Positions 5,651 through 50,829 are shown, counted from the first letter of the stretch. The stretch: 61,150 bases of DNA from a virus (IMGVR_UViG_3300031704_000002:1-61150), one strand, 5' to 3'. The notes: generated by a model from the letters alone, not told the origin. Made by a program: numbers and translations.

Positions 5651-5673
5651 CTCTTCTTTAACACATCGTATTT
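5651..5673 (-). promoter_or_regulatory. Phage RNAP promoter, class B (T7-like) AAATACGATGTGTTAAAGAAGAG
   Basis: Near-identical copy at 6008-6030; upstream of portal; AATACGA matches the T7 promoter upstream half. Confidence 0.6.
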
Positions 5674-5688
5674 TTGTTTTGTCTGCTG

Positions 5689-5995
5689 TAGGATCCTCTC
5701 TTGAGATCTAAGGCTTGAGGCTCTTTAAAAGTACTTGTTTAAGCTATCAACAAACAACAATGCTTTCGATTCAAGAGAGGTCCTCTTAGGGTCTCTTCTT
5801 AGCATCTACTGACTCCGATCTCGTCAGTAAGGTCCCTAGTTAGGATTCTTAAGGGTTTTCCCCTCTCTTTAACGTCACCTATTTATGTCTTTATTTACAA
5901 AGACTTATCTATCCTAAAACCATGAGTTTTGTCTAAATTTAGCCTCCTACTGACTCCGATCTCGTCAGTAAGGTCCCTAGTTAGGATTCTTTAGA
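5689..5995 (-). repeat. Promoter-linked hairpin module (2 copies of TACTGAC-GAGATCGGA-GTCAGTA core), homologous to 24060-24700
   Basis: Core actgactccgatctcgtcagtaagg at 5808 and 5949; flanks shared with the copies at 24181 and 24453. Confidence 0.9.
5863..5884 (-). promoter_or_regulatory. Phage RNAP promoter, class A (SP6-like) AAATAGGTGACGTTAAAGAGAG
   Basis: One of 7 intergenic copies; resembles the SP6 promoter ATTTAGGTGACACTATAGAA. Confidence 0.75.
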
Positions 5996-6007
5996 TTTTC
6001 TTTTTTC

Positions 6008-6030
6008 CTCTTCTTTAACGCATCGTATTT
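6008..6030 (-). promoter_or_regulatory. Phage RNAP promoter, class B AAATACGATGCGTTAAAGAAGAG
   Basis: Second copy of the 5651 motif. Confidence 0.6.
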
Positions 6031-6075
6031 ATCTTGATGAAAACAAAGGTTTTTCATTAACCTTCTGCTAAGATA

Positions 6076-6321
6076 TTAATCACAACCGGTATCGAACCCT
6101 TTGATAACTCTTACTGCTGTAATGATGACATTCGGATGGGTCTGCTCATTATACCTTAGAAGAGATTCAGCTAAATTACCAACTGGCTCTTCTAACGTTT
6201 CACAAATAGCCCCATCTGAAGCCTCTGGATTAATTGCTCCTGTCAAGGAGGTACTGCAAGCTGTCGTTAACGTTATTAGGAGCAAGGCGAAGAGACTCAT
6301 TGATTTTCTTCCTGCGTTCAT
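6076..6321 (-). CDS. Outer-membrane spanin (Rz1-like lipoprotein)
   Basis: Signal peptide with lipobox-like TTAC; overlaps the 3' end of the i-spanin; lysis cassette position. Confidence 0.7.
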   Translation of the reverse strand: MNAGRKSMSLFALLLITLTTACSTSLTGAINPEASDGAICETLEEPVGNLAESLLRYNEQTHPNVIITAVRVIKGFDTGCD

Positions 6322-6451
6322 TTTGGTTCTCCTGAAGTTCAATAGTAATTTCACTCCGCTCTGCAGTTCTAACGTACCTCAAAGCACCAAATACAGTGCC
6401 TCCTAGTGCAATAACAACCGCGATAGCAATTAAGATAGTTTTGATTGGCAT
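6230..6451 (-). CDS. Inner-membrane spanin (Rz-like)
   Basis: MPIKTILIAIAVVIALGG N-terminal TM helix followed by a coiled coil. Confidence 0.7.
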   Translation of the reverse strand: MPIKTILIAIAVVIALGGTVFGALRYVRTAERSEITIELQENQNERRKKINESLRLAPNNVNDSLQYLLDRSN

Positions 6452-6452
6452 A

Positions 6453-6731
6453 TCATTCCCACCCTTCTTCATACTTAACTTTGTCACGTTTTGCCACATT
6501 TTCTGTGATCTCATGCAATCCAAGTGCCGAGCAAACAGCAGCTAGAGTGGGCGTGAAAGTTGTTTCCAGAAAAGAAGTATCACCAGAAAACATACCCCAA
6601 CCTAGACAAGCAATAAAAGTTCCACCTGTGAACTCGCGCTTGTAGGTCTTTTTTCGGGGTCCTTGCTTTTCAGTGAATTTCTTTTTAACAAGATCAGGGG
6701 CTTTTTCTCCTGTTTCAATCTTATCGGTCAT
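6453..6731 (-). CDS. Putative holin
   Basis: Small protein with two hydrophobic segments, between endolysin and spanins. Confidence 0.5.
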   Translation of the reverse strand: MTDKIETGEKAPDLVKKKFTEKQGPRKKTYKREFTGGTFIACLGWGMFSGDTSFLETTFTPTLAAVCSALGLHEITENVAKRDKVKYEEGWE

Positions 6732-7194
6732 ACCCCGGCGCTCCCTTTGGAATCTCGAAGTGTACCCAGTCAATAAAGCTGTGGTCTGTGTGTTGACCAT
6801 CACCATCCCAGTCAGCGCCCCAACGAATAGGCACACCTAGTTTCTGACCAGCTAGCCTCATAGCAACACCAATTGCTTGATATCCTTCATACTTGCCCGC
6901 GTGGTCTACTTTGTAGAATGACTTAACGTTATCAGTATTCCAACTAATGTTACCGTTTTCCCACCAAGCTAGATCAACAGCCATACCAACAAGGTGACGG
7001 CTGTTCATTGTCTTTGATTTCCCTTCACTAACTAAACGACGCTGCCTTTCTCTAGACCTCATACCCTCAATTACAGCAAAGTCCTCTGTGGAGTACTCGC
7101 TTAGGGCAAGATATACAACGCGAATTAGATCGGGGTGCACCCCCGCGAGACGATCGCGGGAGCGCTTAGACAGAACAAATCCTGTTTTTGTCAT
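6721..7194 (-). CDS. Endolysin, M15 family L-Ala-D-Glu peptidase
   Basis: LSKRSRDRLAGVHPDL, EGMRS.ERQ, SRHLVGMAVDL, RWGADW, D.VHFE motifs. Confidence 0.92.
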   Translation of the reverse strand: MTKTGFVLSKRSRDRLAGVHPDLIRVVYLALSEYSTEDFAVIEGMRSRERQRRLVSEGKSKTMNSRHLVGMAVDLAWWENGNISWNTDNVKSFYKVDHAGKYEGYQAIGVAMRLAGQKLGVPIRWGADWDGDGQHTDHSFIDWVHFEIPKGAPGYDR

Positions 7195-7607
7195 AATTTA
7201 TCTCTTCCTTTAACTTTTTTCTTTTTAGGGGGTTCAGGCCAAGCTGGAGCCTTTGGATTAAGTGTGTTGTCAGGCAGATCTCTAAGAGCTTTCCTGTAAT
7301 CAGTCCAAGCTTTCTTGTCTGATTCCACATCTGGTAACAAGAATTTATCCGAAGCTGCTAGCTTTTTATTACGTTTTAGTCTAAATACGCGCCATTCTTC
7401 TTCTTTTCGGCGCTTGTTCTCCTCTTTAATTATGACGTCTTGTTCTTTTTCTACTAGAACTCCGTTAGAAAAGGTTAGATCCTTAGGCTTAACGTTATAA
7501 GAAAATTCTGCGATAAGTTGGCCTTCTTCTAAAACTCTCTCAAGCCACTCACGATTACGTGATGTACCTAGAATTTCTTCTTTGTTATTATACAAAATAT
7601 AAATCAT
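7191..7607 (-). CDS. Tail fibre assembly chaperone-like protein
   Basis: C-terminal R.KRNKKLAASD...W.DYRKALRDLP...WPEPP motif. Confidence 0.75.
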   Translation of the reverse strand: MIYILYNNKEEILGTSRNREWLERVLEEGQLIAEFSYNVKPKDLTFSNGVLVEKEQDVIIKEENKRRKEEEWRVFRLKRNKKLAASDKFLLPDVESDKKAWTDYRKALRDLPDNTLNPKAPAWPEPPKKKKVKGRDKL

Positions 7608-10600
7608 TTGAACCTCACAAATATAGAAGAAATACAGTCAAGAAGTTCAATATCACCAGATTCTCCCATCCAGTATACAAATACAGAAAAGAGCGCTTCT
7701 GCAGGATTTCCATTAAAAGATCTAATGTTTTCAAGATCTTTAAGAACGCTTACAACAGTAACGTAGTCGGTTTCTTGTTCTATTGGTGATAGAAGACGTT
7801 GTTTCATAACATGGTAGCCAGTACCACGGACTTTACCATCACCTTGGTATATATCAACAGTTCCTGTTCCTGTTCCTGCAGTAGTAGCAGAGAATAAATC
7901 TCCGGGGTTGTATAAAAGACCTGCTGTACCGGCCATGTTATTCCAGGTGCCTTGAGAGGTAGACCCTAATGATTTTATTATGTAAGTGACCCCAGATATA
8001 ACCGAAGTAACAGGTATGTCAATAATGTTTGTTGTGCTAATAGTACTCCCAACAGATTTAGTCTGTCCTACGGTACCATCCAAAGCATTCCAGTTTGCTT
8101 GCCCCGCACTACCAAGGTCGAGGATTGTGTAAGAGGAAAGGCTATTCATAAATCCACAGCTAACATCCATTAACACATAAGGACTACCCGCTTCAATTTT
8201 ATAACCCCAAGCATCATTATCTGCGACTAAATTAGAGTAAACATGCTCGAAGTTAACAGCAATCTGAACATCAGCATTATAAGCAGGGGGTATATCTAAG
8301 GTAGCCCCGCCCACTAGTTGTAAGAAGTTAATCCCCTGCATAGGTAGGTTTCCCCTATATAAATTATCTTCTAGCTGAGTGATATTACCACCCTTAACTA
8401 TAAGTTTACCACTACCGTCCGAGGATAAGCTTCCATCTCCAATACTGATTTTATCAGCAGTTAAAGTATCGCTTACAAGCAGATTACCATCAATGACTTC
8501 ATCTTGCTTAACCCAAGTAGATCCGGTATAGATCCATACAGATTGACTAGTTGGACTAGCCTGTGCACCTGTATAGAACCAAGCTTGATCACTTGAGATT
8601 GGTGGTGTAGGTGTATTGAGATCAGAGTTCCATCTCGTCTGGGCTGTATAAGCACTAGTAGGAAGAGAGGTAACAGGTATGTTCCATCTCCCCGGACCTC
8701 TAGCACCTACGGGTCCATCTTCACCGTCACTACCACTCATACCAACGACACTTGCCGCAGAGAACTCAGCGGTATTAATGATGTCGGTACTTTCACGACT
8801 AGCCGCCGTAGCTTGAATAGCAAAGAGATACTCTCCCGCATTAAGAGACGGAGCAGTCTGTGCCCAGTTTCCTAGGATACCTGTTAAGACGCCTGTATTA
8901 AAGTTGTAGGTCAAGTCACCAGTAGGATCCGCTGGTGGTGTAGTAGTTGTATTCTTAGCGTAGAGAGTAACAAACGCTGTATTGATACCGTCTTGGCCAG
9001 CCGAAGACTCAACAACCGGATTAGAAAACTCTGTTCCAGCTAGGGAGTTTGTCGCCGTAGTAGCTGAAGCAGTAGCTCTAGTTACCCATAGCTCTTCGTT
9101 TGGATTCAAGCTAGGGGGTAGCTTAGACCACCCGTTGAGGTTACCACCAGTAAGATCTGCTGTGCTAAAGGTATAATTAAATGTACCAGTAGGTTTAGGT
9201 GGTGGGGTAGAACCAGAGGCTAGTTTCTGGAATAACAGAACAATTGCTGAGTTAAGACCATTTTCACCGTCACTACCACCAATACCGCTAGAAACGATAA
9301 CAAACGGAAGAGATATTAGAGCAATAGACGTACCATCATTAAACTGAAAAGTAACAGTTGCAAGTTCATCATTAACACTAACACTAGGTGTAATAAACCC
9401 AACGTTTACTTCATCTGGTATATCCGCTGATCTGTCTGTAACAGGGGCAGACCAAGTATTACCAGAGCGCGACAGTCGGTAACGGTTTCTTGCTACAGTA
9501 AGACCTGCTTTAATAAAGATTACATCAATATCAAGGAATGTATCACTGTAAGTTCCTGCATTAGGATTGTATATGATCTGGCCTTGTGTGACATACACCG
9601 CATTTGATGTGATACCTGAGGTCACAGGTGCTTGGCTAGTAACCTGTATGTTGTCTGAGTAGGCACTAGAATTACCTTGAGTATCAACTGCACAAACCCT
9701 GTAGTTATACAGTGTATTTGGTAGCCTGTTAGAGTCAGTAAACTTAGAACCAACCTCTGTACCAACTAGGGTTGTTGGGTTAGCAAACACAGACCGATAA
9801 ATCTGGTACTCTTTGAAGTCTAGCAGAGGTGAGTTATCAATGTTTTGTGTAACTTCGTCCCAAGTTAGATCAATTACGGTACCCTCGGCAGTAGCCACTA
9901 GGTTTTGTGGAGGTTTAGGGAAAGTACTATCAACACCAGAAGTGAAGGCGATATGTGTAGGCTCAGACTCTAAGCCAGAGGTAAGAATAGTTTTCACTAT
10001 TGCATGGTAATCCTTACCCCCATCGAGGGAGGGTATCCTAACAGAGTTTGATACACTCGTAGCTGTTTGCCGTAATACATCATCTACCTTCTTATACTCA
10101 ATAAGGTAAGAAGCATCATTGTATACAGTATCCCAAGTTAGATCAACGTAAGAGTTAGATACTGCGCCTTTAAAAAATTCTACCCCTGTAGAGGCTTGCA
10201 AATTTGTTGGCTTACTAATAGTAAAGTCAAACACAGGTTGAGAAGTATAAGGAATATCATCTGGCACATTCCAAGCAAACATGTTAGCTGTTACAAGTGT
10301 TGCTTTGACTTTAACAGAAAAATCCACCCTGATTTCAACTTCTTCTGCTTTCCAAATACCATTTGGGGCGTTCGTAAGTTCAGAGTCAATTCTGAAGAAA
10401 TCACCGGGTTCAATCCTAAGACCTTTTCTGCCTAAAGTGATCTCAAGGTTATTTGAGTCACGAGAGATCCTTACTGTTTGCTCAGCTTCAGCCATAGCGT
10501 GGTAAGGTGTCGTAGCATCAGAAGTAATTGTACTCTCATAGACCTTATTGTTGTCTTCAGCTAGGTAAGTGTTATGAACAGTACTTCCTCGCTCGGGCCA

Positions 10601-12070
10601 AGAAATGGAATCCGAAGCAAAGTTCTCAAACTCGTTATTGAAATCAACCGTTACTCGGTTAAACCTTTGAGCGGCTTGACCAAATTCTTCTTGAATGCTT
10701 CCAACACGAAGAATATCATCATCACCAAAGGTGTTGTCTGCATTGATAAGTGCTTCTAGTTCTGCGTCAGTATCAGGATAATTCATAACAAGACGGTATT
10801 TACCATCGTTGGTCCAAACCAAATCTGCAAAAGGAATACCGCTTAAGATAGATTCAATATTATCCCTAACACTTTGGCTGGGATCAATTGTTAAGTTACC
10901 TTCAAACCTATACACATCTTTTCGAGGAGCAGAGATTTCAACGTATTGGCCGATCTCTTCTACGGGCTGACTTAAGAGAGCATAATACTGAGTGGAGGTC
11001 AGCCCGTACTGATCCCAGATCCCCCAGGACTGCTCCTGGCCCCTGGGGGGCTGATAGTCATCAATCGGATTCAGCGACCCAATCGGATCATAGATTTCTG
11101 ATACGAATTTATAGAACTTACCCGTATCAACGGCCTTGTAGATGGTAGACCCTGATGGGTGTCCAAAGTAGTCTTGATCTTTAAGAGACTGTTTAGTAGG
11201 GAAGCCAGAGAGTGTACCGTACTCACGGAGAGGGCCTAGACCATTAACACCACCACCAAACTGTTGGTCAGACATAGCAACCACACCAGCAATACCTGCT
11301 GCTCTACCAAAGGAGTCAATTTCAATTTGGCTATCAAGCAGACCTGCACCGTAGGGTGCGGTCAGATAATCAAACAGAACTTCTACGCGATTGTTAGAGT
11401 ACTCCTTGTATCCGGATATACCATATGATCCCCCTCCAAGGTCGTCAAATGTGCGAATGTGGTTACCTTTAACAAGGAACTGTAGTCGTGGTATGCCACT
11501 GTACTGAGGCTCTTTACGGTTTAGTTTGAATATGTTAGTAGAGTAAGCACAATTAGTGAATTTGTTTGTTGCCGGTTGACCGTTAGCAGTATCAAGAGGT
11601 TCTGCTGTACCACCACTGTAGTGTACGTAGAAGTTATGAGTAAACTTCTTTTTCTGATATTTATAGGTAGTTGAGTTAACAAGAATGTCTTCAACACTCT
11701 CAATTCTTGTACCTTGGGTGTTACACAGAGCAGTGTTAAACATTAGGTAAGAGTTCTTACCAGCGTTGTGGGTACCACCTTCAAAACTAAAGTCTTCCGG
11801 TTGTTTAAAGGCATTACTTGCAGCAGTAACAGCGGGTGTGATTGAGCTACGCACTCTATGGTTAAGCTCAGTACCACCAATAATCTGTTTTCCGTAAATA
11901 ATAGGAAGAGGTCCGACCTCACCCCTTACTGGAATAAAGAAGCCTCGTCTCTTATCAGCCTCCGCCTCAGCCTTTCTTCTTGCCCTGTCTTGTTTTTTCT
12001 TTTGGTTCCTGGCTGAAATAACTTGAAATGCCGCTGAAACGGCAAATAGGACTAAAGACTCAATACCCAT
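7604..12070 (-). CDS. Tail tip / central fibre (gpJ-like) with fibronectin III domains
   Basis: 1488 aa; PLPIIYGK, GIPRLQFLVKG, DYLTAPYGAGL, PKPPQNLVA..YNYRVCAVDTQGNSS FN3 motifs. Confidence 0.85.
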   Translation of the reverse strand: MGIESLVLFAVSAAFQVISARNQKKKQDRARRKAEAEADKRRGFFIPVRGEVGPLPIIYGKQIIGGTELNHRVRSSITPAVTAASNAFKQPEDFSFEGGTHNAGKNSYLMFNTALCNTQGTRIESVEDILVNSTTYKYQKKKFTHNFYVHYSGGTAEPLDTANGQPATNKFTNCAYSTNIFKLNRKEPQYSGIPRLQFLVKGNHIRTFDDLGGGSYGISGYKEYSNNRVEVLFDYLTAPYGAGLLDSQIEIDSFGRAAGIAGVVAMSDQQFGGGVNGLGPLREYGTLSGFPTKQSLKDQDYFGHPSGSTIYKAVDTGKFYKFVSEIYDPIGSLNPIDDYQPPRGQEQSWGIWDQYGLTSTQYYALLSQPVEEIGQYVEISAPRKDVYRFEGNLTIDPSQSVRDNIESILSGIPFADLVWTNDGKYRLVMNYPDTDAELEALINADNTFGDDDILRVGSIQEEFGQAAQRFNRVTVDFNNEFENFASDSISWPERGSTVHNTYLAEDNNKVYESTITSDATTPYHAMAEAEQTVRISRDSNNLEITLGRKGLRIEPGDFFRIDSELTNAPNGIWKAEEVEIRVDFSVKVKATLVTANMFAWNVPDDIPYTSQPVFDFTISKPTNLQASTGVEFFKGAVSNSYVDLTWDTVYNDASYLIEYKKVDDVLRQTATSVSNSVRIPSLDGGKDYHAIVKTILTSGLESEPTHIAFTSGVDSTFPKPPQNLVATAEGTVIDLTWDEVTQNIDNSPLLDFKEYQIYRSVFANPTTLVGTEVGSKFTDSNRLPNTLYNYRVCAVDTQGNSSAYSDNIQVTSQAPVTSGITSNAVYVTQGQIIYNPNAGTYSDTFLDIDVIFIKAGLTVARNRYRLSRSGNTWSAPVTDRSADIPDEVNVGFITPSVSVNDELATVTFQFNDGTSIALISLPFVIVSSGIGGSDGENGLNSAIVLLFQKLASGSTPPPKPTGTFNYTFSTADLTGGNLNGWSKLPPSLNPNEELWVTRATASATTATNSLAGTEFSNPVVESSAGQDGINTAFVTLYAKNTTTTPPADPTGDLTYNFNTGVLTGILGNWAQTAPSLNAGEYLFAIQATAASRESTDIINTAEFSAASVVGMSGSDGEDGPVGARGPGRWNIPVTSLPTSAYTAQTRWNSDLNTPTPPISSDQAWFYTGAQASPTSQSVWIYTGSTWVKQDEVIDGNLLVSDTLTADKISIGDGSLSSDGSGKLIVKGGNITQLEDNLYRGNLPMQGINFLQLVGGATLDIPPAYNADVQIAVNFEHVYSNLVADNDAWGYKIEAGSPYVLMDVSCGFMNSLSSYTILDLGSAGQANWNALDGTVGQTKSVGSTISTTNIIDIPVTSVISGVTYIIKSLGSTSQGTWNNMAGTAGLLYNPGDLFSATTAGTGTGTVDIYQGDGKVRGTGYHVMKQRLLSPIEQETDYVTVVSVLKDLENIRSFNGNPAEALFSVFVYWMGESGDIELLDCISSIFVRFK

Positions 12071-12633: not shown

Positions 12634-12647
12634 GACTGCTCCTTAGA

Positions 12648-13232: not shown

Positions 13233-13678
13233 TGTTGTTGTCTCCCTATACCGACAATGGTCCTGTCTAAAAGAGGCAATACATCGCTTTGAACAACCAT
13301 ATCTCTTTCATTTATAAAGAATTCCGTATTAGAACCATAAACTAGCGAAGTATTAAGACCTGAGGCTGTTCTACGAGCAATCAAATCACCTTCTCTTACG
13401 TCCTCTAAGTTTTCTATTTTTTGTAGGCCCAACTGAACAATAAATCTATCCATAGCTGGTTGCAGGGATCTAGTCTTTGTTCCTTTCATCATCTCTAATA
13501 CAAAATGTTTGTTACTAAAAAAGGTTTGCCTTGTCCACTTGGGTTGTTGATAGCTATGGTCTACTAACTGTTTATAAACTAGGACTAACGCCCAACAATC
13601 GTTGTGGCCTATAATGATGTTCCCTGTTTTTTTTAACCGGGCTTTCATTTCTTCGATTGCCTCTAAAACTTCTTTCAT
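13229..13678 (-). CDS. NlpC/P60-like tail assembly protein (possibly degenerate)
   Basis: GHNDCWALV and EGDLI motifs. Confidence 0.5.
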   Translation of the reverse strand: MKEVLEAIEEMKARLKKTGNIIIGHNDCWALVLVYKQLVDHSYQQPKWTRQTFFSNKHFVLEMMKGTKTRSLQPAMDRFIVQLGLQKIENLEDVREGDLIARRTASGLNTSLVYGSNTEFFINERDMVVQSDVLPLLDRTIVGIGRQQQ

Positions 13679-13720
13679 ACTCTTCTCCTAGTAAGTGAGG
13701 GAGGACCCTAAGGTTTCCCC

Positions 13721-13742
13721 CTCTCTTTAACGTCACCTAATT
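13721..13742 (-). promoter_or_regulatory. Phage RNAP promoter, class A
   Basis: AATTAGGTGACGTTAAAGAGAG upstream of the tail tip operon. Confidence 0.75.
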
Positions 13743-14049
13743 ATGTGATAAAAAACAAACCCTTAGTTACTCCCTTTTTTTTTTTTTTTCACTTTGAAGC
13801 TTAAGACTTGCTCCAAGACTTGTGAGTAAGTCAATTGGGCTTCCTTTAAAGAGCCGCTAAATGGACGGCCCCGGACAGTGTGTCCTGATCTTGGTTTGTC
13901 GTGTTGTCAGGTGACTACGACGTTGTAATCGACGCCATCAGTGAACAGCGATGAAGCAGACCCAAATGTGTATACATCTATCCCGTCACTGGTTTCAGAA
14001 AACGTCAATTCTGTCCCGACGCCGCGCTGCGATTTGGGCGGCTACTGTT

Positions 14050-14929: not shown

Positions 14930-14940
14930 TGGGTCGCTCC

Positions 14941-24057: not shown

Positions 24058-24059
24058 CC

Positions 24060-24700
24060 TAGGATCCTCTCTTTAGATTTGAGGTCTAAGGCTCTGTTAA
24101 ATTATTTATTAACAAATAATCAACAAACAACAGTCCTTTCGATTCAAGGGAAGACCCTTTAGGGTCTCTTCTTAGCATCTACTGACTCCGATCTCGTCAG
24201 TAAGGTTCCTAGTTAGAATCCTTTAGGGTTTCTTTTTACCCTCTTCTTTAACGTCACCTATTTTATTTCTTTACTTTCAATTGTTTATCTACTATAAAAC
24301 TGTAAGTTTTGTTAAAAAAGGTAAGATCCTCTTAGGATCCCTAGTTAGGATCCTACCTTAAGTCTCTGTTAAAGTATTTATTAACAAATAATCAACAAAC
24401 AACAATGCTTTCGATTCAAGGGAAGACCCTTTAGGGTCTCTTCTTAGCCTCCACTGACTCCGATCTCGTCAGTAAGGCCCCTAGTTAGGACCCCTATTTA
24501 GGGGTTTTCCCCCTTCTTTAACGTCACCTATTTTTTCTCTTTACTTTCAATTGTTTATCTACCTTAAACTATGACTTTTGTCAAAAAAGATAAGATCCTT
24601 TAGGGTTTCTTTTTACCCTCTTCTTTAACGTCACCTATTTTTTCTCTTTACTTTCAATTGTTTATCTACCTTAAACTATGACTTTTGTCAAAAAAGATAA
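24060..24700 (-). repeat. Tandem promoter/hairpin array with three class A promoters (24241, 24511, 24618)
   Basis: Repeated cttctttaacgtcacctatttt, ttactttcaattgtttatctac and actgactccgatctcgtcagtaagg blocks. Confidence 0.9.
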
Positions 24701-24701
24701 G

Positions 24702-24768
24702 AAAAAAAAAAAAAAGGGGGTATGACCCCCACCCCATCCCAATTAAGGGACAGGATGGGGGTTCATGA
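24702..24768 (-). terminator. Rho-independent terminator
   Basis: Long GC-rich hairpin (ACCCCCATCC..TCCC TTAATT GGGA..GGGGTGGGGGT) followed by T14 on the minus strand. Confidence 0.75.
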
Positions 24769-24963
24769 GTAAGGTCTCTTCATACCAGAGAGCTCCAGAG
24801 TGTACCCCTCTGGTGACTCCTCTAAGCTCTGGATACCCACCCTACTAGAAGAGTGAACCCATGTCTCTACGGTCTCCTTTGAGGCACTTTACCATAGTTG
24901 ATCGGTAACTTCAGTAAGAGGGCCACATACTAATGCTAGCCTCTTGTTCCTCATTGAAGAGCC

Positions 24964-38108: not shown

Positions 38109-38123
38109 GTTTAATATTTTCCT

Positions 38124-41240: not shown

Positions 41241-41262
41241 TCATCTTTAACGTCACCTAAAT
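41241..41262 (-). promoter_or_regulatory. Phage RNAP promoter, class A
   Basis: ATTTAGGTGACGTTAAAGATGA; first 11 nt identical to the SP6 promoter. Confidence 0.75.
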
Positions 41263-41438: not shown

Positions 41439-44156
41439 TTAGATTTCTTTCATTTCTTCTACTCTCATGAGCTTGTCTGTATCAGCCTGCATCCTTCCAG
41501 TTTTATGATTGTAATATAGCTTACCAGCAGGGCCGGTTTGGCCAGTGAAGCGACACTTGAGTACACTTAGCATCATAGTGTTTCGCTCTTTCTCGTCGTC
41601 TGACTCTTGGTTTCTTGCAAAGCCAATGACGTCGAAAGAAATCTGTTTGATAGAACCAGAATTGTGGGTGATTATATGGTTACCCAATAAGAACCTACCG
41701 TCTCCGTCTAAGGTAAAGCCATAGTATCTATCTTCATTAAGTTTCTCAATGATAATTCCTCTTTTTAGACAGTCATTACGTTTCCTACTAGGTGGTACTT
41801 TTGATGACTTTTGACAAGGTATCTTATCTATTGCACCTGAAATCGTTACTTGGTAAATAGTAGAGCCATATGAAGAATAGCTTATTGAAGTTATCTTTTG
41901 AGGGCGACAAGTACTATAAAAACCTAAAGACCTTGCAATGTTCTTTACGTCTTCCGCCATTGTTTTATCTTTCTGGTAAAAATAAAAACACCTGTCTTTC
42001 TTTGAGTAAGTTCCGTCTGTATCTATTAACCCGGCAATTAACTGGATTCTATTTTCCCTAGAGTTAAACTTATAGTCAGGAGGAATGTGTTTGTTATTTA
42101 GAACACCAATATGCCTTAATTTATTGAGTAAATCATCTTTTGTAGTAGTTACAAAGTTGAAATATTCTTTCTTTCTATTAGATGGTGTCTTCAAAGTTGC
42201 ATTCAATTCTTCGCTTACCCTTTTTGCAATACCTAAGTCAGAAGCATCCATGATCCTGAAAGCAGACTTAGAACCGTCTCCAAGCCAAACCCCTAAAGAG
42301 TAAGGGGGTATAATAAGATCCTTATTATCTAGTTCATACCCTTCCGAGAAGTGTTGTTTACACCTAACCTGAAAGCTTTTACTTTTATCTAAAAAGTCTT
42401 TAACTTTCATATCAAACATTCTATTATTTCTTGATAGAGTCAATACATGGTTCTCATTACAGATAAAATAATCTTTTGATGTTTTGTTAGATACTTTATA
42501 CATACGTTGTTTACCGGTTTTTAGGCTCATAACTGTTCTTGGTAATGAGTCTGGACCCATGAGCTTGTCACCAACTTTGATGTCTTGTACTTTTACTTTT
42601 CTACCCTTATAGCTTAATACTTCTGTGTCATAAGCTAAACAACCTTTGATGTCGTCTAGGGACGGAATACGACCTTGTTCAAAAGTTTTCTGGTCGTTGT
42701 TTCTTTTACGAAGGTGAGAGATTAGACCAATCCACACATCATACTTCTTAGCTAGATGTAAGAGATTGTTCATAATCTTGTCAATGGCTTCATTACCAGT
42801 AAGCCCGTCTGAACCTTCAGAAACAAGAATTGTAATGTGATCGATAAAAAGATACTTACAACCTTTCAGACACATGAACTCTAGGTGGTCCATAATAGAC
42901 CCGTCGCTGATAGAGCCTTGATGGTCCAACACCAGAATATCTCCATCTGCGAAGACCTTATCAAAGCCTTCTCTCAAGTCTTCCATAGGGACATCTTCGT
43001 AAGAGGGGTTCTTGTTGATAGCCATACCAGAGAGCTTCCTAGTGTACTCCTCTGGTGACTCCTCTAGGCTGATGATACCTACCCTACTAGAAGAGTGAAC
43101 CCATGCCTCTCCGGTCTCCTCTGAGACACCCTGCTGTAGGTGGTAAACGATCTCTCTCATTAGGGTAGACTTCCCAGAGCCTGTGCCAGAGGCCCAAAGA
43201 GTGATTTCACCAGTTCGTATACCTTTAAGCCTTTCGTTTAGACCCTCCATATAGTCCGGGTAAGGTACAGACTGTTTATTGTTATATGCCTCTAGCCTTT
43301 CCCAGAGGTCTTTACCGTTAAGAATAGCAGCAGGAGAATACTCTCTAGCATCAGCAATAGCCCAAACTACGTGGTCTATGCCATACTCTTTTGCATAGTC
43401 GCAAGCATCCTTTACACCATCAACTGTCTGAACAACCTTAACCTTGTCGTAGCCAAGTATCTTAGCGGCTTCTTTAGTTGCTTTTTGACCGGGTCCGTCA
43501 TTATCAAACCAGATAACAATCTCATCAAACTTCCTGAGTTCCTCTCTTACGTCAATTAAGTCTTTTGTTGCAACGGAACTTTGAATAGAGTAAACAGGGT
43601 AGTGTCTTTTATAGATGCCGTAGTTGCCATCTTGTACTTTCATACAGTCGTCTTCACCTTCGGTGATTACTACCCTCTTACCCTTGTTTGGGAACAGACC
43701 CCAACCAAACAAGCCTTTCATTTCACCTACTGTGCCTTCAGAGAAATCCTTAGGTAGAACTCTCTTCTTATAGCCTTTTGGAATACCATCATCAATGTTA
43801 TAGGCATAATAAACTGCTTCTTGGTCCCCATCATCAAAGTAGGATACTTTACAGTTGTATAGCTCCATTGTTCGTAGAGATATTTTCTTCAACTCGTATT
43901 TATCCGAGTCATAGGCATCAAATACAGCTTTGGCAAACTTAGGGTCTTTACGATCAGACCAACCCTTTGGTTTTTTAGAGTATTCCTCCTTTGTTTTATA
44001 TTCTCCGGTACCCATTTCCTCTCCAGTATCGGGATCAAACGACCCTGATTTAAACTTTGCTCCACATTCTGCATTATGACAGTAACCACCACCATCATCA
44101 AAGACTGTGAAGCTGTTACCCCCATGAGCGGGGCAAATCTGATTATACTTGGGCAT
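41439..44156 (-). CDS. T7 gp4-like primase-helicase with intein
   Basis: Zn finger CPAH..CHNAEC, TOPRIM EGEDD/FDND, Walker A SGTGSGKS, FIDH, ISHLRK, KG|SGSIKQ, LKCRFTG. Confidence 0.95.
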   Translation of the reverse strand: MPKYNQICPAHGGNSFTVFDDGGGYCHNAECGAKFKSGSFDPDTGEEMGTGEYKTKEEYSKKPKGWSDRKDPKFAKAVFDAYDSDKYELKKISLRTMELYNCKVSYFDDGDQEAVYYAYNIDDGIPKGYKKRVLPKDFSEGTVGEMKGLFGWGLFPNKGKRVVITEGEDDCMKVQDGNYGIYKRHYPVYSIQSSVATKDLIDVREELRKFDEIVIWFDNDGPGQKATKEAAKILGYDKVKVVQTVDGVKDACDYAKEYGIDHVVWAIADAREYSPAAILNGKDLWERLEAYNNKQSVPYPDYMEGLNERLKGIRTGEITLWASGTGSGKSTLMREIVYHLQQGVSEETGEAWVHSSSRVGIISLEESPEEYTRKLSGMAINKNPSYEDVPMEDLREGFDKVFADGDILVLDHQGSISDGSIMDHLEFMCLKGCKYLFIDHITILVSEGSDGLTGNEAIDKIMNNLLHLAKKYDVWIGLISHLRKRNNDQKTFEQGRIPSLDDIKGCLAYDTEVLSYKGRKVKVQDIKVGDKLMGPDSLPRTVMSLKTGKQRMYKVSNKTSKDYFICNENHVLTLSRNNRMFDMKVKDFLDKSKSFQVRCKQHFSEGYELDNKDLIIPPYSLGVWLGDGSKSAFRIMDASDLGIAKRVSEELNATLKTPSNRKKEYFNFVTTTKDDLLNKLRHIGVLNNKHIPPDYKFNSRENRIQLIAGLIDTDGTYSKKDRCFYFYQKDKTMAEDVKNIARSLGFYSTCRPQKITSISYSSYGSTIYQVTISGAIDKIPCQKSSKVPPSRKRNDCLKRGIIIEKLNEDRYYGFTLDGDGRFLLGNHIITHNSGSIKQISFDVIGFARNQESDDEKERNTMMLSVLKCRFTGQTGPAGKLYYNHKTGRMQADTDKLMRVEEMKEI
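41661..42641 (-). mobile_element. Intein with LAGLIDADG homing endonuclease (327 aa)
   Basis: Starts CLAYDTEV, block B CNENHVL, LGVWLGDG and IAGLIDTDG, ends ITHN before Ser. Confidence 0.93.
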
Positions 44157-44296
44157 TTTACTCCTTTAGCATAGCCTGCGTCCAACTCTCAAGGGAAAAT
44201 TTATTATCTCCCAAGAAAGACACCCCACCAATAGGTTTATAGCCTTTTTGCATAAGACTATTAACTTGGCTCTCCAATATATACCTATCAGAACAC

Positions 44297-44926: not shown

Positions 44927-45665
44927 ACTCAGAAACTACCACCTCTTTGTGTTCTTGTGGTGTTGTCAAGCCCGACAAAATCTTACCTGCCTTGATTGGT
45001 CCTATTCCTTCTATACCCGGAATATTGTCAATGGAGTCGCCGGTCAACATCTGTTTCCAGAAAAATATATCGGCTTGTTCCTCATTGACGTGCCAACGCC
45101 TCTTAGCGTTAGCCTCTGTTTTTGGGTCTAAATGATATCCGGGTATCATGTCTAGGTCTTTGTCAACCGTGACTACAACATAGTTATCTTCCCCTAGCTT
45201 GGTAGCCCAGACACCAATAGCGTCATCTGCTTCGTAACCTTGACAGTAATGGGCATCAAATACATCTACTGCCCAGAACCTTAGCTCATCAATATAAGGC
45301 GCTCTTTTCTTATTAGATGTTGCCCTTGCTTTTTGAAGCTTGTACTCTGGATGTATTTTCTTTCGAAAGTTATCCTGAGAGTTGCCAACTGCCATTGAGT
45401 ACACAGCCTCTTCTTCTGGTATGTAGTGGCTCTCGAATATGTGCTCTACAAAATGCTCAAAACGGTCTTGAGCGTGTTCAATTGAAGGCTGATAGGTTTG
45501 TTTTGCTGCTTCTATCTCCTTAAGACTTGCACCTCTCCACTCCATCTCTTCTAAGTCAGCCTTAGATGCTGGTTTTTGCCAACAAGCCATGTGAACAAGA
45601 ATATCACCATCGATTAAGAGTCTCCTGTTCTTTGGCTTATACTGGATTACTTCCTGCATTATCAT
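44781..45665 (-). CDS. 5'-3' exonuclease (T7 gp6-like)
   Basis: LIDGD, NFRK...YK..R, EADD, DKDL, GDSIDNIPGI.GIG. Confidence 0.92.
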   Translation of the reverse strand: MIMQEVIQYKPKNRRLLIDGDILVHMACWQKPASKADLEEMEWRGASLKEIEAAKQTYQPSIEHAQDRFEHFVEHIFESHYIPEEEAVYSMAVGNSQDNFRKKIHPEYKLQKARATSNKKRAPYIDELRFWAVDVFDAHYCQGYEADDAIGVWATKLGEDNYVVVTVDKDLDMIPGYHLDPKTEANAKRRWHVNEEQADIFFWKQMLTGDSIDNIPGIEGIGPIKAGKILSGLTTPQEHKEVVVSEYGLKYGNEGFKKLLFNGSLLHIWRTKGDIWTFDPEEYEEITNSHAVIV

Positions 45666-46659
45666 CTTCCTTTGAAATTAGGTCAAGATCAATTCCTTGC
45701 ATTACAGCACTTAGGATTTCAGTCATCACCCCCTCATAAGCCTGTTGAAAAGCAACATCTTTTCCAATTGGGAAATCCGATACAATCTCAATTGGGTAAT
45801 CTGTCCCTTTCTTTGATGCTAGTTCATTAAGAGCAACTGCAACATTTGGAAAAGACTTTACCTCTAGTCGGAATCGGTAAGTGTATTCTTCTTCCTCACC
45901 CTCTTCGTGGGTAATTTCGTATTCGTATTTGTTCATATTAGTATCCATTGTTTACTTTTTTGCCCCGCGAATAGTCTTTGGTTTGAACCATTTCCAGTCA
46001 TTGACTCTTTCATTTTCAAAAGGTCTTGGACGTAGCTGTCCTGTAACCGGGTGATACTCTTTTTCTCCATTGAGAGGATGCAACCTATTAACCTTTTTGA
46101 TATTCTTTGGTTTCTTCTCCACTGCGTATTCTTTTATACCTTCTCCCCATACTTTTGGGGGTGTAGAGAGAAGTTTCCTTCAAGTTCATTTTCCCAATCT
46201 ACACCTAGAGCCTTTAGGAGTGCTGCAAGACACCTAACGTCAAACCTGACTGTGTCTACTCCAAAGTCTGTGTTTTGAACAATTTGAAGAACCCCATCTC
46301 TTGATATGTACACTTTCATAGGGTCTCCAGTAGGTTGCCTTTGGAAGTCTATAATTCTGACTCCAGACTTATTCTCAACGTTAATCAATATGTCTGGTAG
46401 CCTGTTTTCTTTTTTGTTTTTAGTCTTATGGGACATTTAGACCTTTCGATTTTACGAACTCTTCAAGCTCTAGAATTCTATACCACATAGAAAGAGTGAA
46501 GTTTGGTAGGTCATGGTGAAAGTTCAGACCTGTGTAGTAACCATGTCTCAAGACTCTACCGGGTTTATCATTAAAGTTTTTGTTGAACTCAATGCTATAA
46601 GTGTCGTCAATCTTTTTAACTTTGGTCATTGATTGTGTACCCTATCTTTCTTATTATGA

Positions 46660-48687
46660 TTAGTGGACTTCAAAGTAGTCTTTTCCAGCTTTACAATCCC
46701 CGCATACCATAATGTCAACACCGAATTCTTTCGGGGCTTCCTTAAAACTCTCAATGATGATTTCTTTTGCTCTTTCAACGTAATCGTTTCTTACTTCAAT
46801 ATTGATCTCATCATGATAGAACAATAGGAATCGGTAGGCAATGCCCTCTTCTTTAAACCTACGCCAAATCATGGAGATAGTTGCCTTCATAACGATCGCC
46901 TCAGCACCTTGGATGAGGTAGTTGAGAGCTTTATGAGGCTGATTGCAATAGATATGTCGATCGTCTAGACCTACGATAAATCCTTGCTTTTTTACGATAT
47001 TTTTAACACGATTGATCAAGCTATCGAGGTTTGGATAAGCCTTTTGGAACTCCTCTTTAAGTTGGAAACCAACAGACTCGGGAAGCTTTAGAATCTTGGC
47101 AAGTTTAGGCCCTCCGGCACCGTAAAGAAATGCAAAAATGAAGGGTTTGGCATCTGCTCGGCTGACAATAGTTGATGACTTAAGAATAGATGTAGCACTA
47201 CGAGAAAGAATATTAGCATTGTTCTGATGCATGTCTCCTTCGAGAAGTTCTTTTAGGAACTCATCATCTTTCATGTAATGAGCTAGAAGCCTTAGCTGAC
47301 AACCAGCGGAGTCAGCCGACACAACAGACCAACCCTCTTCAGCAATAAAGAGGCTTCTGACTTCTTTCCCAAGTGTAGCATTACCTGATGGTAGATTTAC
47401 AATAACGGACTGAGTCTGTCTAAAGGTTGGTGTACCAATATTAATAACATCTCCGTGGAGACGATCATCATCAGAGAAATGATCTTCCCATCCATCCATA
47501 ATTGATTTACGAGACCTTAGAGTGTAAAACTCATTAATGTCTCCTGCGTTATCAAGCAACTCTAACGAAGTACTAGTAATTTTTGGGGAAGTCCTTTTCC
47601 AATAACGTTTACCTCTTTCGTCAAACTCCCACTTACCATTCCAGTCATCTGGCTCCCAGCCAATTTTCCATAGATATCGTTTAACTGAGTCTGTAGAACC
47701 AATATCAGCATCACGGAATGTTACACGACAGTAATCACCCCAAACACCGTAGTTGTTCTTCTTACCTGCATCCTTTGGTAAGTCAAAGGTTTCACGAAGT
47801 GCTTTCGAGAACAGACCATTCTTTTGAACAGCCCATTTCTTAGCAAAGCCACCAGTGAAGTTGTCGTGATCGTACTCGTCTGTGTATCTTATGGTGTCAG
47901 ATTTATACCCTTTCCGATCTCCACTGATCTTCTGAGGCTCTTTACCAAGACGAGGATTAACTTCTGATGTAATCTCATCCATACGTTTGTCAATTTTATC
48001 GATAACATCACAAACGCTTTTCCGATCAATTAACCAACCGTTAATGAGTTGTTCTGCGGCAATTCTAGCAGAGTCTGTCTCAATTTGGATAGCTCTTACA
48101 ATGTTCTTCTGCCCTGATTTGACCATATGGGTTACTTCGCCTAGTAGTTCTTTATAAATAGGAACCATAAGACGAACGTCTTGTTTCATATACTCAAACA
48201 TTTCTTTACTGAACTTAGTAAAGTCTGTCCATTCACCTTTGTAGTTGTCAAGGTGAATACCCCATCGGGCAAGGCTGTGGCTATCACCCATGACAAGCTT
48301 AGGTTTTTTAAACAAACCAAAATCACCCTGTTCATTCCGCCATTTTAGATAGTTTTGGTAGTTCTGATCAGAAGCATCAAACCTATTATAATTGAGCACT
48401 CTAGACATAACATGGGTATCAACAAACTTATCGTGATTATGCTTGTACCATGTTATACCGTTAAGTCTTGCTAGCTTAATAAGTAGGTATTCGTCGTAGC
48501 CCGCGCCGTTATGAGCAGCGCGGACATCGTATGTACATAGGTCTCTTAAAAACTTTTCAAATTCGAGAGGACCGTACCATTTTTCTTCCTTAGTATCAAG
48601 GTCTATAATACCGCCGCAGAACCATCTGTCTGCGCTTCTTAGGAACCCGTTTGCTTCAGTGTCGTAGACACACCTTCGTCTAGCCAT
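46660..48687 (-). CDS. Family A DNA polymerase (T7 gp5-like)
   Basis: Exo DTEANG, AHNGAGYD, YMKQDV; pol DSAGCQLRLLAHY, AKPFIFAFLYGAG, YHDE. Confidence 0.95.
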   Translation of the reverse strand: MARRRCVYDTEANGFLRSADRWFCGGIIDLDTKEEKWYGPLEFEKFLRDLCTYDVRAAHNGAGYDEYLLIKLARLNGITWYKHNHDKFVDTHVMSRVLNYNRFDASDQNYQNYLKWRNEQGDFGLFKKPKLVMGDSHSLARWGIHLDNYKGEWTDFTKFSKEMFEYMKQDVRLMVPIYKELLGEVTHMVKSGQKNIVRAIQIETDSARIAAEQLINGWLIDRKSVCDVIDKIDKRMDEITSEVNPRLGKEPQKISGDRKGYKSDTIRYTDEYDHDNFTGGFAKKWAVQKNGLFSKALRETFDLPKDAGKKNNYGVWGDYCRVTFRDADIGSTDSVKRYLWKIGWEPDDWNGKWEFDERGKRYWKRTSPKITSTSLELLDNAGDINEFYTLRSRKSIMDGWEDHFSDDDRLHGDVINIGTPTFRQTQSVIVNLPSGNATLGKEVRSLFIAEEGWSVVSADSAGCQLRLLAHYMKDDEFLKELLEGDMHQNNANILSRSATSILKSSTIVSRADAKPFIFAFLYGAGGPKLAKILKLPESVGFQLKEEFQKAYPNLDSLINRVKNIVKKQGFIVGLDDRHIYCNQPHKALNYLIQGAEAIVMKATISMIWRRFKEEGIAYRFLLFYHDEINIEVRNDYVERAKEIIIESFKEAPKEFGVDIMVCGDCKAGKDYFEVH

Positions 48688-49094
48688 TCGTCTCCTCCTT
48701 GGAAAGTCTCGTTAGGAATACCGGGATAAAAGAGATTCATGTCTACACCAAGGTCTTTACACTGTTTAATCTTTCCCATGTGTGCCCAAGGAGCAAATTC
48801 CCGTGGCTGTTTCTGTGTATCAGAAATGCGGTTGTGAGCATCCATAAGATACCAGATTGCCTTTTCTAGCTCAATACGCTCATCATCTTTTCGACCGAGA
48901 CGAGTTTGATACTTTAGTGCGTTGACCACACTCGGTGTAACATAGGGATTGATCTTACTACCAATGTAGGCAGCAAGGTCATTGTATCCAATGTCCCTAC
49001 CAGTTTGCAAGGCTCGGATCATTTCCTCTGCCGGAATCAGTTGGTGATGCTTAGCTTGCACCGAGTTTTGGCCTTTTTCACGTTCTGTTGTCAT
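48639..49094 (-). CDS. DUF3310-like protein
   Basis: NALKYQTRLGRKD....LEKAIWYL. Confidence 0.75.
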   Translation of the reverse strand: MTTEREKGQNSVQAKHHQLIPAEEMIRALQTGRDIGYNDLAAYIGSKINPYVTPSVVNALKYQTRLGRKDDERIELEKAIWYLMDAHNRISDTQKQPREFAPWAHMGKIKQCKDLGVDMNLFYPGIPNETFQGGDEWLDEGVSTTLKQTGS

Positions 49095-49118
49095 ATAATA
49101 CCTCTTCTTTAGTTATAG

Positions 49119-49420
49119 TTAAGACTGTTCCTTCTCACTCTGGAGAAGGTCTGTTTTCTTAGCGTACACTGGGATTGCCTCTTTTTTGTGGTGGTTATAA
49201 AAGTTTGCGCGTCTCTCTGTGTCATACATCTTTCCTCTAAGTCCTATCAACGCTGAAGTTTGTTCTTTCTCTGTTCCGTTTCGGGCAACTACATCTCTCC
49301 ACCTCTTGACACTGAATACGTGGGGGACCCACCAACCAACACAGACCTCTTCATCTTTAACGTCTGCTAATTGCTTTTCAAACGGCGCTTTTTTTTTTTA
49401 GTTTCAAAGATATCATCCAT
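49119..49420 (-). pseudogene. ~100-codon gene frameshifted at an A11 run
   Basis: ATG at 49420 (MDDIFETKKK), A11 at 49389-49399; the other frame is open from APFEKQL to TAA at 49119. Confidence 0.55.
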
Positions 49421-49928
49421 TATAAGCTTCTTCTTCAATTTCATCAAGTGCCTTAGAGAGATCATAACGCAGGGCTTCTGCGCTAATGTATCCGTAGAGA
49501 CGTGCTACTTTGTCTGCAGCAAAGTCTTGAGACCAGTGGTTACCCTCTGCCATGATTGCCGCTCGTTCTTCAAACTGGTCACGACACATCATAATTTGTT
49601 CTTTTGTTTTAAGCTCTACTAAAGCCATAGGATTGTCCTTCCATTCGTTGCCATAAGTTTTCCCAAAGAAGAAAGCCCATTTATAAGGATCGTCTAATAC
49701 TTCACAAGAGCACCATTCCCAGTTAGAGATGTCGATATTATTGTAACGAGCATTCGATTCTATTAAAGACATATGCGCTCGCATATCAACCATAGTATAA
49801 CACCCATCTCTAATAAGCATGATGTAACCCTTTTGGGCACAGGGTCCACTCTCAATAAAGTGTAGGCTGTAATTTTCATCTACTAGGCTTAGATTACCGC
49901 TGTAGAACTCCATGAATCTTTCAGACAT
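49413..49928 (-). CDS. Hypothetical protein
   Basis: 171 aa ORF; FEERAAIM motif. Confidence 0.6.
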   Translation of the reverse strand: MSERFMEFYSGNLSLVDENYSLHFIESGPCAQKGYIMLIRDGCYTMVDMRAHMSLIESNARYNNIDISNWEWCSCEVLDDPYKWAFFFGKTYGNEWKDNPMALVELKTKEQIMMCRDQFEERAAIMAEGNHWSQDFAADKVARLYGYISAEALRYDLSKALDEIEEEAYNG

Positions 49929-50089
49929 ATTCTCAACCCTTTCAGTTGTTTGGGGAGGCTATTATAGCCCCCCCTTGTTTTTGTTATTTATACTTTCGAG
50001 CCGGTAAGCATTACACGACCTTCTAAACTAACCATGTAATCGGTCAAGCTGGGGGATAGACGCCACTCTTCGGTGGTATTCATGGCCTA

Positions 50090-50737
50090 TCACCCTTGGT
50101 CAAAAGGGATTTCGTCATCAAGATCTTTTGGTGTAGTCTTTTTACTCTTTGGTGCTGCTCGACCCTTCTTTGGTTGGGCGTCAGCTTTCTCTAGTGCCTT
50201 AGAACCAACATCACCATCTTCGTCACCATCTGGATCAACAACCTTCATAGAGTTGACGTGCTCAAACTCTTCTTTAGGCCGAGGTACATAGCGGTGAAGC
50301 TCTTTAACAGAGAGACCAAGAAAGTAATGAACGTGTTTAGTCACACCATCGTGCGTGTATTCTCGTGTGAAGATACGAACATCACCAATCGATCCATTAC
50401 CAACGATCTTAGGATCGCTGAAGGCCTCTCCTGTATCACCGCGAAGGATCTCAGGCGGGCTGGATTCTTGGCCGTTTGCCTTAAACTGGTTACGACGAAG
50501 CTTCCAACGATAGAAAAGAATAGTCGACTCTTCATCGTCTTTGTCTTCTCGAACAGCTTTTACATGTTTAGTAGCGTTATACTCTTTACGCCACTTATTG
50601 GCCTCTGCCTTGTCCTCTGTTCGCAGTTCGACTTCCCAACCCATACGAGGATTACCATCGTTATCGTCTCCGATTTTGACAGGGTTGTTAGGGTCAGCCT
50701 TCAACCAGAAAATGGTAGCATCTTTGATAATTGCCAT
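50090..50737 (-). CDS. Single-stranded DNA-binding protein (T7 gp2.5-like)
   Basis: IVGNGSIG motif, acidic tail ending DDEIPF; replication module position. Confidence 0.75.
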   Translation of the reverse strand: MAIIKDATIFWLKADPNNPVKIGDDNDGNPRMGWEVELRTEDKAEANKWRKEYNATKHVKAVREDKDDEESTILFYRWKLRRNQFKANGQESSPPEILRGDTGEAFSDPKIVGNGSIGDVRIFTREYTHDGVTKHVHYFLGLSVKELHRYVPRPKEEFEHVNSMKVVDPDGDEDGDVGSKALEKADAQPKKGRAAPKSKKTTPKDLDDEIPFDQG

Positions 50738-50806
50738 GTTTTATTACATCCTGTGTTTCGAGAGCTTATAAATTTTGCTCTCTTATAGTGCGCACTTAGC
50801 GCTGTC

Positions 50807-50829
50807 CTCTTCTTTAACGTCACCTAATT
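50807..50829 (-). promoter_or_regulatory. Phage RNAP promoter, class A
   Basis: AATTAGGTGACGTTAAAGAAGAG heading the replication module. Confidence 0.78.

Follow-up and report, generated by a model that had tools for sequence, protein, structure and literature searches.

Which RNA polymerase reads which promoter in a viral genome that displays two promoter classes built on one initiation half? The question is raised by IMGVR_UViG_3300031704_000002, an entire virus contig of IMG/VR (61,150 bp, linear, estimated to be 87% complete), which was analyzed at its full length and is referred to here as the window. A first-pass annotation, made from the sequence alone, had noted SP6-like (class A) and T7-like (class B) promoters of single-subunit RNA polymerases (RNAPs), tentatively tied class A to an intron-split RNAP, and taken the two recognition halves as a sign of a two-polymerase genome with possibly orthogonal RNAP/promoter pairs. 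Our analysis arrives at a joint reading that falls just short of being probable: class A would be read by the intron-split T7-like RNAP, an early motif termed E1 by a second RNAP fused to a MuF head-morphogenesis domain (MuF-RNAP), and class B would be a variant promoter of the T7-like enzyme.

An exact scan of the window recovered seven copies of the class A sequence TAGGTGACGTTAAAGA and two of the class B sequence TACGATGYGTTAAAGA, all of them intergenic minus-strand sites in gene orientation, at the places named in the first-pass annotation; its start coordinates designate the right sites, but their values are 3–4 nt too low since transcribed bases had been included. A tenth site absent from that list is the intergenic variant TAGCAGACGTTAAAGA (class A with C at −11 and A at −10; 49354..49369, minus strand), which is kept in the near-identical contigs L040-L042 and reads TAGCAGATG in L043. 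All ten sites lie between open reading frames (ORFs), in the same direction as the genes, and the predicted +1 positions are 47–566 nt ahead of the next ORF start. With up to three mismatches allowed, class A yields nine matches against 0.63 expected, a number reached in none of 100 shuffles; the same statistic is not significant for class B alone, as 21 of 100 shuffles reached its two matches. For the shared initiation half GTTAAAGA, 21 occurrences stand against 3.55 expected, and 16 of them are on the minus strand. By our own arithmetic, the chance that two of the nine minus-strand GTTAAAGA sites outside class A have one preceding 7-mer in common is about 0.002. Between −17 and +8, B1 and B2, the two class B sites, have the same base at 23 of 25 positions, and their wider flanks show no relationship.

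In gene order, the first of these sites is the class A promoter at 50811..50826 (minus strand, as for all following sites), an exact 16-mer and the first one after the end of the T7-like RNAP gene, with a predicted +1 at the G in position 50812, 75 nt before the next ORF start. Beyond the variant site, class A recurs at 41244..41259, between the primase-helicase gene and a block with ribonucleotide reductase, and three times in a 900-nt non-coding stretch (24058-24963), at 24622..24637, 24515..24530 and 24245..24260, the last two being followed by a structured leader module. The copy at 13724..13739 stands ahead of the tail genes, its presumed +1 47 nt before the ORF start at 13678. The portal gene is preceded by B1 (TACGATGCGTTAAAGA, 6012..6027), with a leader-module copy next to it, by a class A promoter at 5866..5881, which is part of a 141-nt unit missing in two variant contigs, and by B2 (TACGATGTGTTAAAGA, 5655..5670), whose putative +1 is 52 nt before the portal ATG at 5604. 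Transcripts are predicted to start purine-rich and to continue into hairpins. The leader module, detected as repeat families D4, D7 and D13, comprises ~165 nt with several hairpins (consensus fold of 52 pairs). Its three and a half minus-strand copies lie behind four promoters: at 5700..5867 (downstream of the class A promoter at 5866), at 24073-24246 and 24345-24516, and, incompletely, at 5947-6008 behind B1. No Rfam model matches the module, and the Rfam scan of the window returned only tRNAs and a group I intron; the module could be a processing or stabilizing element. A hammerhead reading of CTGACGAG within the leader was dropped, since no Rfam model matches it and it folds into a simple hairpin.

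The ten sites share a layout of an A/T-rich block from −17 to −13, a recognition block from −12 to −7 and the common melting and start block GTTAAAGA, with transcription predicted to begin at G. This TA-N7-TTAAAG architecture is common to the window, to its closest named phages, the roseophages DSS3_VP1 and DSS3_PM1 (Naomviridae; VP1 and PM1 in the following), which have the same gene order, and to other relatives. As the sites are exact, strand-specific, intergenic repeats of a conserved ~20-bp motif with purine-rich starts and 5′ hairpins and an architecture shared by relatives, and as the genome encodes a single-subunit RNAP with the first promoter downstream of its gene, we interpret them from their sequence as candidate duplex promoters of the T7 type, with the tentativeness attached to the joint reading as a whole. 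Checked against the SP6 and T7 genome records, the likenesses claimed in the first-pass annotation are there: class A equals SP6 at TAGGTGAC and class B equals T7 at TACGA. Neither class joins the respective promoter family. Identity to the SP6 consensus (Zindervirus) is confined to TAGGTGAC, and the start block reads GTTAAAG, not ACTATAG; the T7 block TACGACTC (Teseptimavirus) is not found in class B, which continues with TGY after TACGA, and the T7-like look comes down to three bases (CGA, −12 to −10) beyond the TA that is common to every class.

The T7-like RNAP is encoded on the minus strand by an exon 1 ORF of 267 amino acids (53627..54430; PHROG 414 RNA polymerase, E 1e-11), the last codons of which extend into a group I intron (52912..53639; RF00028, 53.4 bits against a cut-off of 50; core at 53455-53639, 3′ boundary approximate), and by an exon 2 of 465 amino acids (51514..52911; PF00940, 276 bits) with motifs A, B and C and the specificity loop KAVRVRLQHGPKTLWVQIQVWEES. 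The intron holds an HNH/NUMOD4 endonuclease ORF (52930-53448, minus strand; Pfam NUMOD4 and HNH_3), and the joined exons give 732 amino acids, the length of the unsplit VP1 RNAP. The loop quoted in the first-pass annotation, RVRLQHGPKTLWVQIQV, is present in exon 2. To compare loops, T7-like RNAPs were aligned with those of T7 and SP6, and the loop was taken from the window and from 67 loci. At the positions aligned to T7 R746-N748, the window enzyme has R-V-R, as does SP6, in which TAGGTGAC occupies 6 of 11 sites.

Promoter positions −12/−11 vary among relatives together with the loop residue that aligns to T7 N748: they read GG where this residue is R or K, CC where it is E and GT where it is L. 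The loop R-V-R of the window line (the window and four near-identical loci) is found with the GG of TAGGTGAC, R-L-K of VP1 with the GG of TAGGGTGC, R-T-K of the relative G004 with the GG of CAGGGGAC, R-T-E of the majority of relatives with the CC of TACCTGAC, and R-T-L of L072 with the GT of TAGTGGAC. The complete promoters read TACCTGAC[GC]TTAAAG in most other relatives, TAGTGGACG in L072 and CAGGGGACG in G004. Of the 31 R-T-E loci with 600 nt or more of downstream sequence, 25 contain TACCTGAC[GC] and the other six gave no match; three further E-loop loci that end before such downstream sequence stand outside the 31. The recognition block hence covaries with the specificity loop across a small number of independent lineages. 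The first TA-N7-TTAAAG promoter follows the RNAP gene at a distance of 170–230 nt in relatives and of 688 nt in the window. The loop equivalent of the MuF-RNAP does not track these promoters, since the window line and the CCTGAC lineages have one and the same type. Since loop and promoter covary and the first promoter comes directly after the RNAP gene, class A, judged by position and covariation, belongs to the intron-split T7-like RNAP, which agrees with what had been proposed from its SP6-like loop. The T7-like RNAP would drive middle and late genes from the seven class A copies and the TAGCAGAC variant. The direction of the pairing between amino acid and base agrees with the work on T7 and T3 only.

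The second polymerase is met at the far end of the contig, where an ORF on the minus strand (3..3047) encodes the first 1015 amino acids of the MuF-RNAP fusion, namely a MuF domain (PF04233) joined by a linker to the N-terminal portion of a T7-fold RNAP, before being cut by the contig end. The catalytic motifs fall beyond the contig; within the 1015 residues no domain other than MuF is matched, and the window holds one Pfam RNA_pol (PF00940) region only. Full-length homologs of ~1460 amino acids, including the “minor head protein-like protein” of DSS3_PM1, have MuF at ~140-245 and RNA_pol at ~1050-1425, the latter scoring 27–34 bits against a cut-off of 22 in four of five scanned proteins; the fifth is a truncated exon 1 product of the window lineage. 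The continuation of the window ORF, up to about residue 1160, is seen in L109, a near-identical contig with a 100% identical portal, where a group I intron (L109:14216-14445; RF00028, 103 bits) interrupts motif B and the next exon carries the HD of motif C. Motifs A, B and C of the L109 MuF-RNAP are present as DASSSG, K..YG and HDAF. Both RNAP genes of the window lineage are thereby intron-split. About a dozen further MuF homologs of roughly 1140-1180 amino acids are devoid of an RNA_pol domain, which suggests that the same gene is split in other lineages.

A profile of 22 homologs retrieves T7 RNAP as the best relative of solved structure (PDB), in an alignment that spans the T7 specificity loop and motif C. 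The structural model was made for the VP1 homolog rather than for the window protein: AlphaFold (AF2) folds its last 902 residues (562-1463) with a predicted local distance difference test score (pLDDT) of 81.8 and a predicted template modeling score (pTM) of 0.75, and Foldseek matches the model over its whole length to yeast mitochondrial and T7 RNAPs (8c5s, 3e2e, 1cez; E ~5e-19, template modeling score ~0.5, ~900-1000 columns). The complete VP1 genome contains exactly two RNA_pol regions; with two there and one in the window, a third RNAP was not found. Relatives of the fusion are encoded on 405 stretches in IMG/VR. Pfam scores, profile and modeled fold of the VP1 homolog together indicate that the second single-subunit RNAP of this phage line is real, and the two-polymerase genome proposed in the first-pass annotation, one enzyme being the intron-split T7-like RNAP and the other the MuF-RNAP fusion, is borne out. 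The MuF-RNAP is presumably packed into the capsid and would be injected with the DNA. A search of the published literature, supplements not covered, found no description of the fusion or of these promoters. The term “RNA polymerase” has no occurrence in the consulted portions of the VP1/PM1 paper (PMC8323127), where “promoter” appears once, on a terminase intron, and the passages matching “proteom” contain no virion proteome; the accessible part of a 2025 article on deoxyuridine (dU) enzymes (PMC12697855) makes no mention of RNA polymerase, promoter or transcription.

If a polymerase enters with the DNA, its promoters should precede the T7-like RNAP gene, and a motif with this position is E1. 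Its consensus, AAAAAGTGAGAAAA-N6-CATCTATAATGA, occurs upstream of the T7-like RNAP gene in 1–4 copies in nearly all relatives with enough sequence (noted within L044-L101); the window contains two, AAAAGTGAGAAAAACGAAGCATCTATAATGA at 60974..61004 and a second copy at 58608..58638 (both minus strand), and a sister contig four. The motif is conserved family-wide, among phages of only ~50% protein identity, and 43 distinct 55-mers converge on one consensus. Its core CATCTATAAT was counted 67 times forward and once in reverse in 67 RNAP-centred loci, 34 of which have at least one copy, and 10 times forward and never in reverse in 80 late-region loci, confined to the far 3′ ends where the early region begins. 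With a sigma-70 reading of E1 and E2 in mind, our own count revealed no −35-like hexamer 16-18 nt from the TATAAT of E1, and a consensus scan of 54000-61150 gave no excess of sigma-70-like sites (11 found, 11.6 expected). Because E1 has no suitably spaced −35-like element, is widely conserved and occupies the place from which an incoming polymerase would have to activate the T7-like enzyme, its sequence and position make E1, rather than class B, most likely the promoter of the MuF-RNAP. No repeated motif was found in the early region of the relative G005, whose MuF gene is cut by the contig end. A further early element, E2 (ACACCTRAACATGTGTATAAACTGTTCA), is restricted to the window lineage, with four minus-strand copies ahead of early ORFs (61040-61067, 60680-60707, 59882-59909 and 58260-58287, spanning 58260..61067); it contains a 6-bp inverted repeat and has CAT..TATAA in common with E1.

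Class B is then left to be placed. Within −17 to +2, B1 departs from class A only at −12, −10, −9 and −8, and B2 additionally at −7. Exact-motif scans found class B in promoter context in 3 of 27 IMG/VR stretches and 4 of 103 metagenome stretches, all of them near-identical contigs, and matches outside the window lineage are single, unrelated and mostly in coding contexts. It is absent from 147 loci of relatives (1.71 Mb), where none of 124 forward TACGATG sequences is followed by GTTAAAG, and a search of IMG/VR and metagenomes for another lineage with class B as its main promoter was negative. In L109, the ~10 kb beyond the window contain no further class B and one more class A site. The MuF-RNAP loop of the window lineage, QERIEF.DP.TGRK, is the majority type among relatives.

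These results bear on the pairing that the first-pass annotation had contemplated, in which class B would be the cognate promoter of the second polymerase, for instance giving a late boost to its own portal/MuF-RNAP/head operon, and the genome would contain two orthogonal pairs on one initiation half. A second T7-fold RNAP, one hairpin of which aligns with the T7 specificity loop, does exist, both class B sites stand ahead of the operon that encodes it, and all four differences between B1 and class A fall into the 5-nt block from −12 to −8 (chance ~0.001, own arithmetic), the pattern expected for a change of reader. Two variant contigs, L027 and L253, moreover have B1 and B2 without the intervening 141-nt unit that holds the class A promoter, and class B promoters would be the only ones near the portal gene if this unit is truly missing; a collapse of the repeat during assembly is the alternative. 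Yet class B is absent from the sampled relatives even though G001 and most others have the same MuF-RNAP loop type, and an assignment of class B to the MuF-RNAP is for this reason not supported. The MuF-RNAP is also so distant from the T7-like enzyme (Pfam E 1e-6 to 1e-8) that one would not expect the −17 to −13 and −6 to +8 blocks to be identical, and E1 is both better placed and better conserved. We therefore consider this pairing quite unlikely.

Could class B instead consist of inactive copies of class A units, decayed or serving as decoys, that persist since the upstream class A promoters (5866, 13724) serve the portal operon? The tandem 141-nt unit around B1 is a paralog of the class A unit, class B is limited to one lineage, and its recognition block is far from every class in relatives. 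Random decay, however, would not give one five-base block twice. B1 and B2 are identical at almost all core positions in unrelated flanks, the changes spare the A/T-rich block and the start block, and no same-lineage contig seen has an altered B1 or B2. Decay appears quite improbable to us on these grounds.

The alternative of another reader or co-factor, such as a phage protein by which the T7-like RNAP is redirected late in infection, or a one-base shift of the start register (TA-N-GRTG-CG, the layout of the VP1 main class, versus TA-GGTG-A-CG), draws on the promoters of VP1 and PM1. Class B and the VP1 main class TAGGGTGCG have the layout TA-N-G-R-TG-CG in common, class A equals a VP1 minority class (TAGGTGACG), and in VP1/PM1 as in the window the portal gene is preceded by the two layouts next to each other. 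The argument is purely pattern-based, and a family rule is contradicted by L114, with two identical promoters ahead of the portal gene, and by most relatives, in which a small conserved gene abuts the portal and no promoter is found there. The related proposal that the portal-nearest promoter always belongs to a different class was rejected for the same two observations, and we regard a different reader or register as unlikely. A palindromic element, TATACTTTAAAGTATA, was observed ~370-400 nt upstream of the portal in several relatives (L121:8028, L132:8028, L138:7883, G001:11295, G003:25816); it fits the TA-N7-TTAAAG pattern, and could equally be an operator or a terminator.

By analogy, class B is most likely an alternative promoter of the T7-like RNAP, probably weaker or differently timed, although this is the least secure step of the joint reading. 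It would form a lineage-specific pair ahead of the portal/MuF-RNAP/head operon, read by the T7-like enzyme; VP1 and SP6 give a precedent, each carrying several recognition variants in its genome. Ahead of GTTAAAG, VP1 and PM1 present four recognition blocks, TAGGGTGC (main), TAGGTTAC, TAGGTGAC and TAGGGTAC, which in VP1 are up to three positions apart, and SP6, with one annotated RNAP, presents five, including TACGTGAC. B1 differs from the VP1 main class at two positions. In T7, one RNAP serves both class II and class III promoters, whose strength and timing are unequal and which are set apart by a few scattered bases; the window resembles T7 in having two classes in one genome, and differs in that its classes diverge throughout most of the recognition block.

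Several points weigh against the joint reading. Class B departs from class A at four (B1) or five (B2) of six recognition positions, which makes one loop for both classes doubtful biochemically; in T7 and SP6 promoters, single changes at −9 or −8 cost most activity. The covariation that ties class A to the T7-like enzyme comprises about five loop types and, as far as the sequences tell, few independent events, and a group at 49% identity (loop R-T-W) has no TA-N7-TTAAAG promoter at all. Every start site has been deduced from sequence, and packaging and injection of the MuF-RNAP are presumed from its MuF domain only. E1, with its perfect TATAAT, could be a host sigma-70-type promoter lacking a −35. 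Finally, G004 keeps an E1-like motif though its MuF-RNAP loop has S in place of the arginine that most relatives carry at the position aligned to T7 R746, which argues against this loop reading E1.

How the proposed arrangement relates to described systems can be stated in more than one direction. Like SP6 and T7 (Autographiviridae), the window repeats its promoters, ~23 bp long in those phages, in gene direction with the first one after the RNAP gene, and places the recognition block upstream for the specificity loop. It differs from SP6 and T7 by an RNAP only ~33% identical to the Autographiviridae enzymes, in addition to the start block described above, and from Autographiviridae generally by a siphovirus-type genome of ~70 kb, a second RNAP and a group I intron in the RNAP gene. 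With coliphage N4 it has in common a single-subunit RNAP presumably present in the virion, a second T7-like RNAP made after infection, and separate promoter sets. The N4 virion RNAP is described, in the part of a survey of polyvalent proteins (PMC5512222) available to us, as a protein of ~3500 amino acids with a central polymerase domain and a fused metallopeptidase, and N4-like virion RNAPs are stated there to occur only in N4-like phages. The polymerase of the window line is different: it forms the C-terminal ~900 residues of a ~1460-residue protein with MuF at the N-terminus and matches T7 and mitochondrial RNAPs, no N4 chain being among the Foldseek matches listed for the VP1-homolog model, and its candidate promoter E1 is a conserved duplex-type motif with no obvious hairpin. 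MuF domains fused to effector domains are mentioned in the same portion of that source (PMC5512222). The window-line protein resembles these in that its N-terminal MuF precedes an enzymatic cargo, which likely enters along with the DNA, and differs in that the cargo is a complete RNA polymerase. The closest phages, VP1 and PM1, share with the window the promoter architecture and the E1 motif, at 64% identity for the C-half of the T7-like RNAP and 58% for the MuF protein; they differ in their main promoter class TAGGGTGC, in having no class B and in their unsplit RNAP genes.

Every substantial ORF of the window is on the minus strand. The order begins with an early block that contains two pentapeptide-repeat proteins, and proceeds via the T7-like RNAP, DNA polymerase A, a 5′-3′ exonuclease and an intein-bearing primase-helicase to ribonucleotide reductase, rIIA/rIIB homologs, large terminase, tail genes, endolysin and portal, followed by five tRNAs and the MuF-domain ORF that runs off the contig. 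Among the tRNA genes, a sixth, partial tRNA-like match (3545-3601, minus strand; Rfam 34.4 bits, model positions 8-63) was not called by ARAGORN. The primase-helicase gene (41439-44156, minus strand) includes an intein with Hint and LAGLIDADG homing endonuclease domains that is missing from the 635-residue VP1 ortholog, and 120 nt of non-coding sequence upstream of the triple class A promoters (24781-24900) are 84% identical to 43023-43142 inside this gene. The early pentapeptide-repeat proteins (59021-59851 and 59989-60642, minus strand), unannotated in VP1, are possibly DNA mimics. An exact 127-nt direct repeat (60664-60790 and 61024-61150), within which the contig ends, probably accounts for the stop of the assembly, and the sister contig L043 extends farther into the early region. 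Cultured members of the roseophage group have uracil DNA, according to the consulted portion of PMC8323127. The window encodes an HD-family (YfbR-like) nucleotidase (55297-55911, minus strand) with 44% identity to a VP1 gene. Since tblastn detected no homolog of the VP1 dCTP/dCMP deaminase in the window, its phage may or may not have uracil DNA, a point that bears on any promoter assay.

Single-subunit RNAP/promoter pairs are core tools of molecular biology, for which mutually orthogonal new pairs are wanted, and the family offers a natural series of loops and promoters on one start block (GGTGAC, GGGTGC, CCTGAC, GTGGAC, GGGGAC). A complete RNAP fused to a MuF head protein would constitute a second, independent route, besides N4, for injecting a polymerase, in a globally distributed group. 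It is conceivable, though a step short of probable, that this widespread marine phage family runs a host-independent relay, in which a capsid-delivered MuF-RNAP would read E1 and thereby switch on a T7-like enzyme with fast-evolving loops and promoters, and in which class B would add a third specificity, belonging to the MuF-RNAP late in infection or to a retargeted T7-like enzyme; the family would then be a source of many orthogonal pairs, possibly tuned to uracil DNA.

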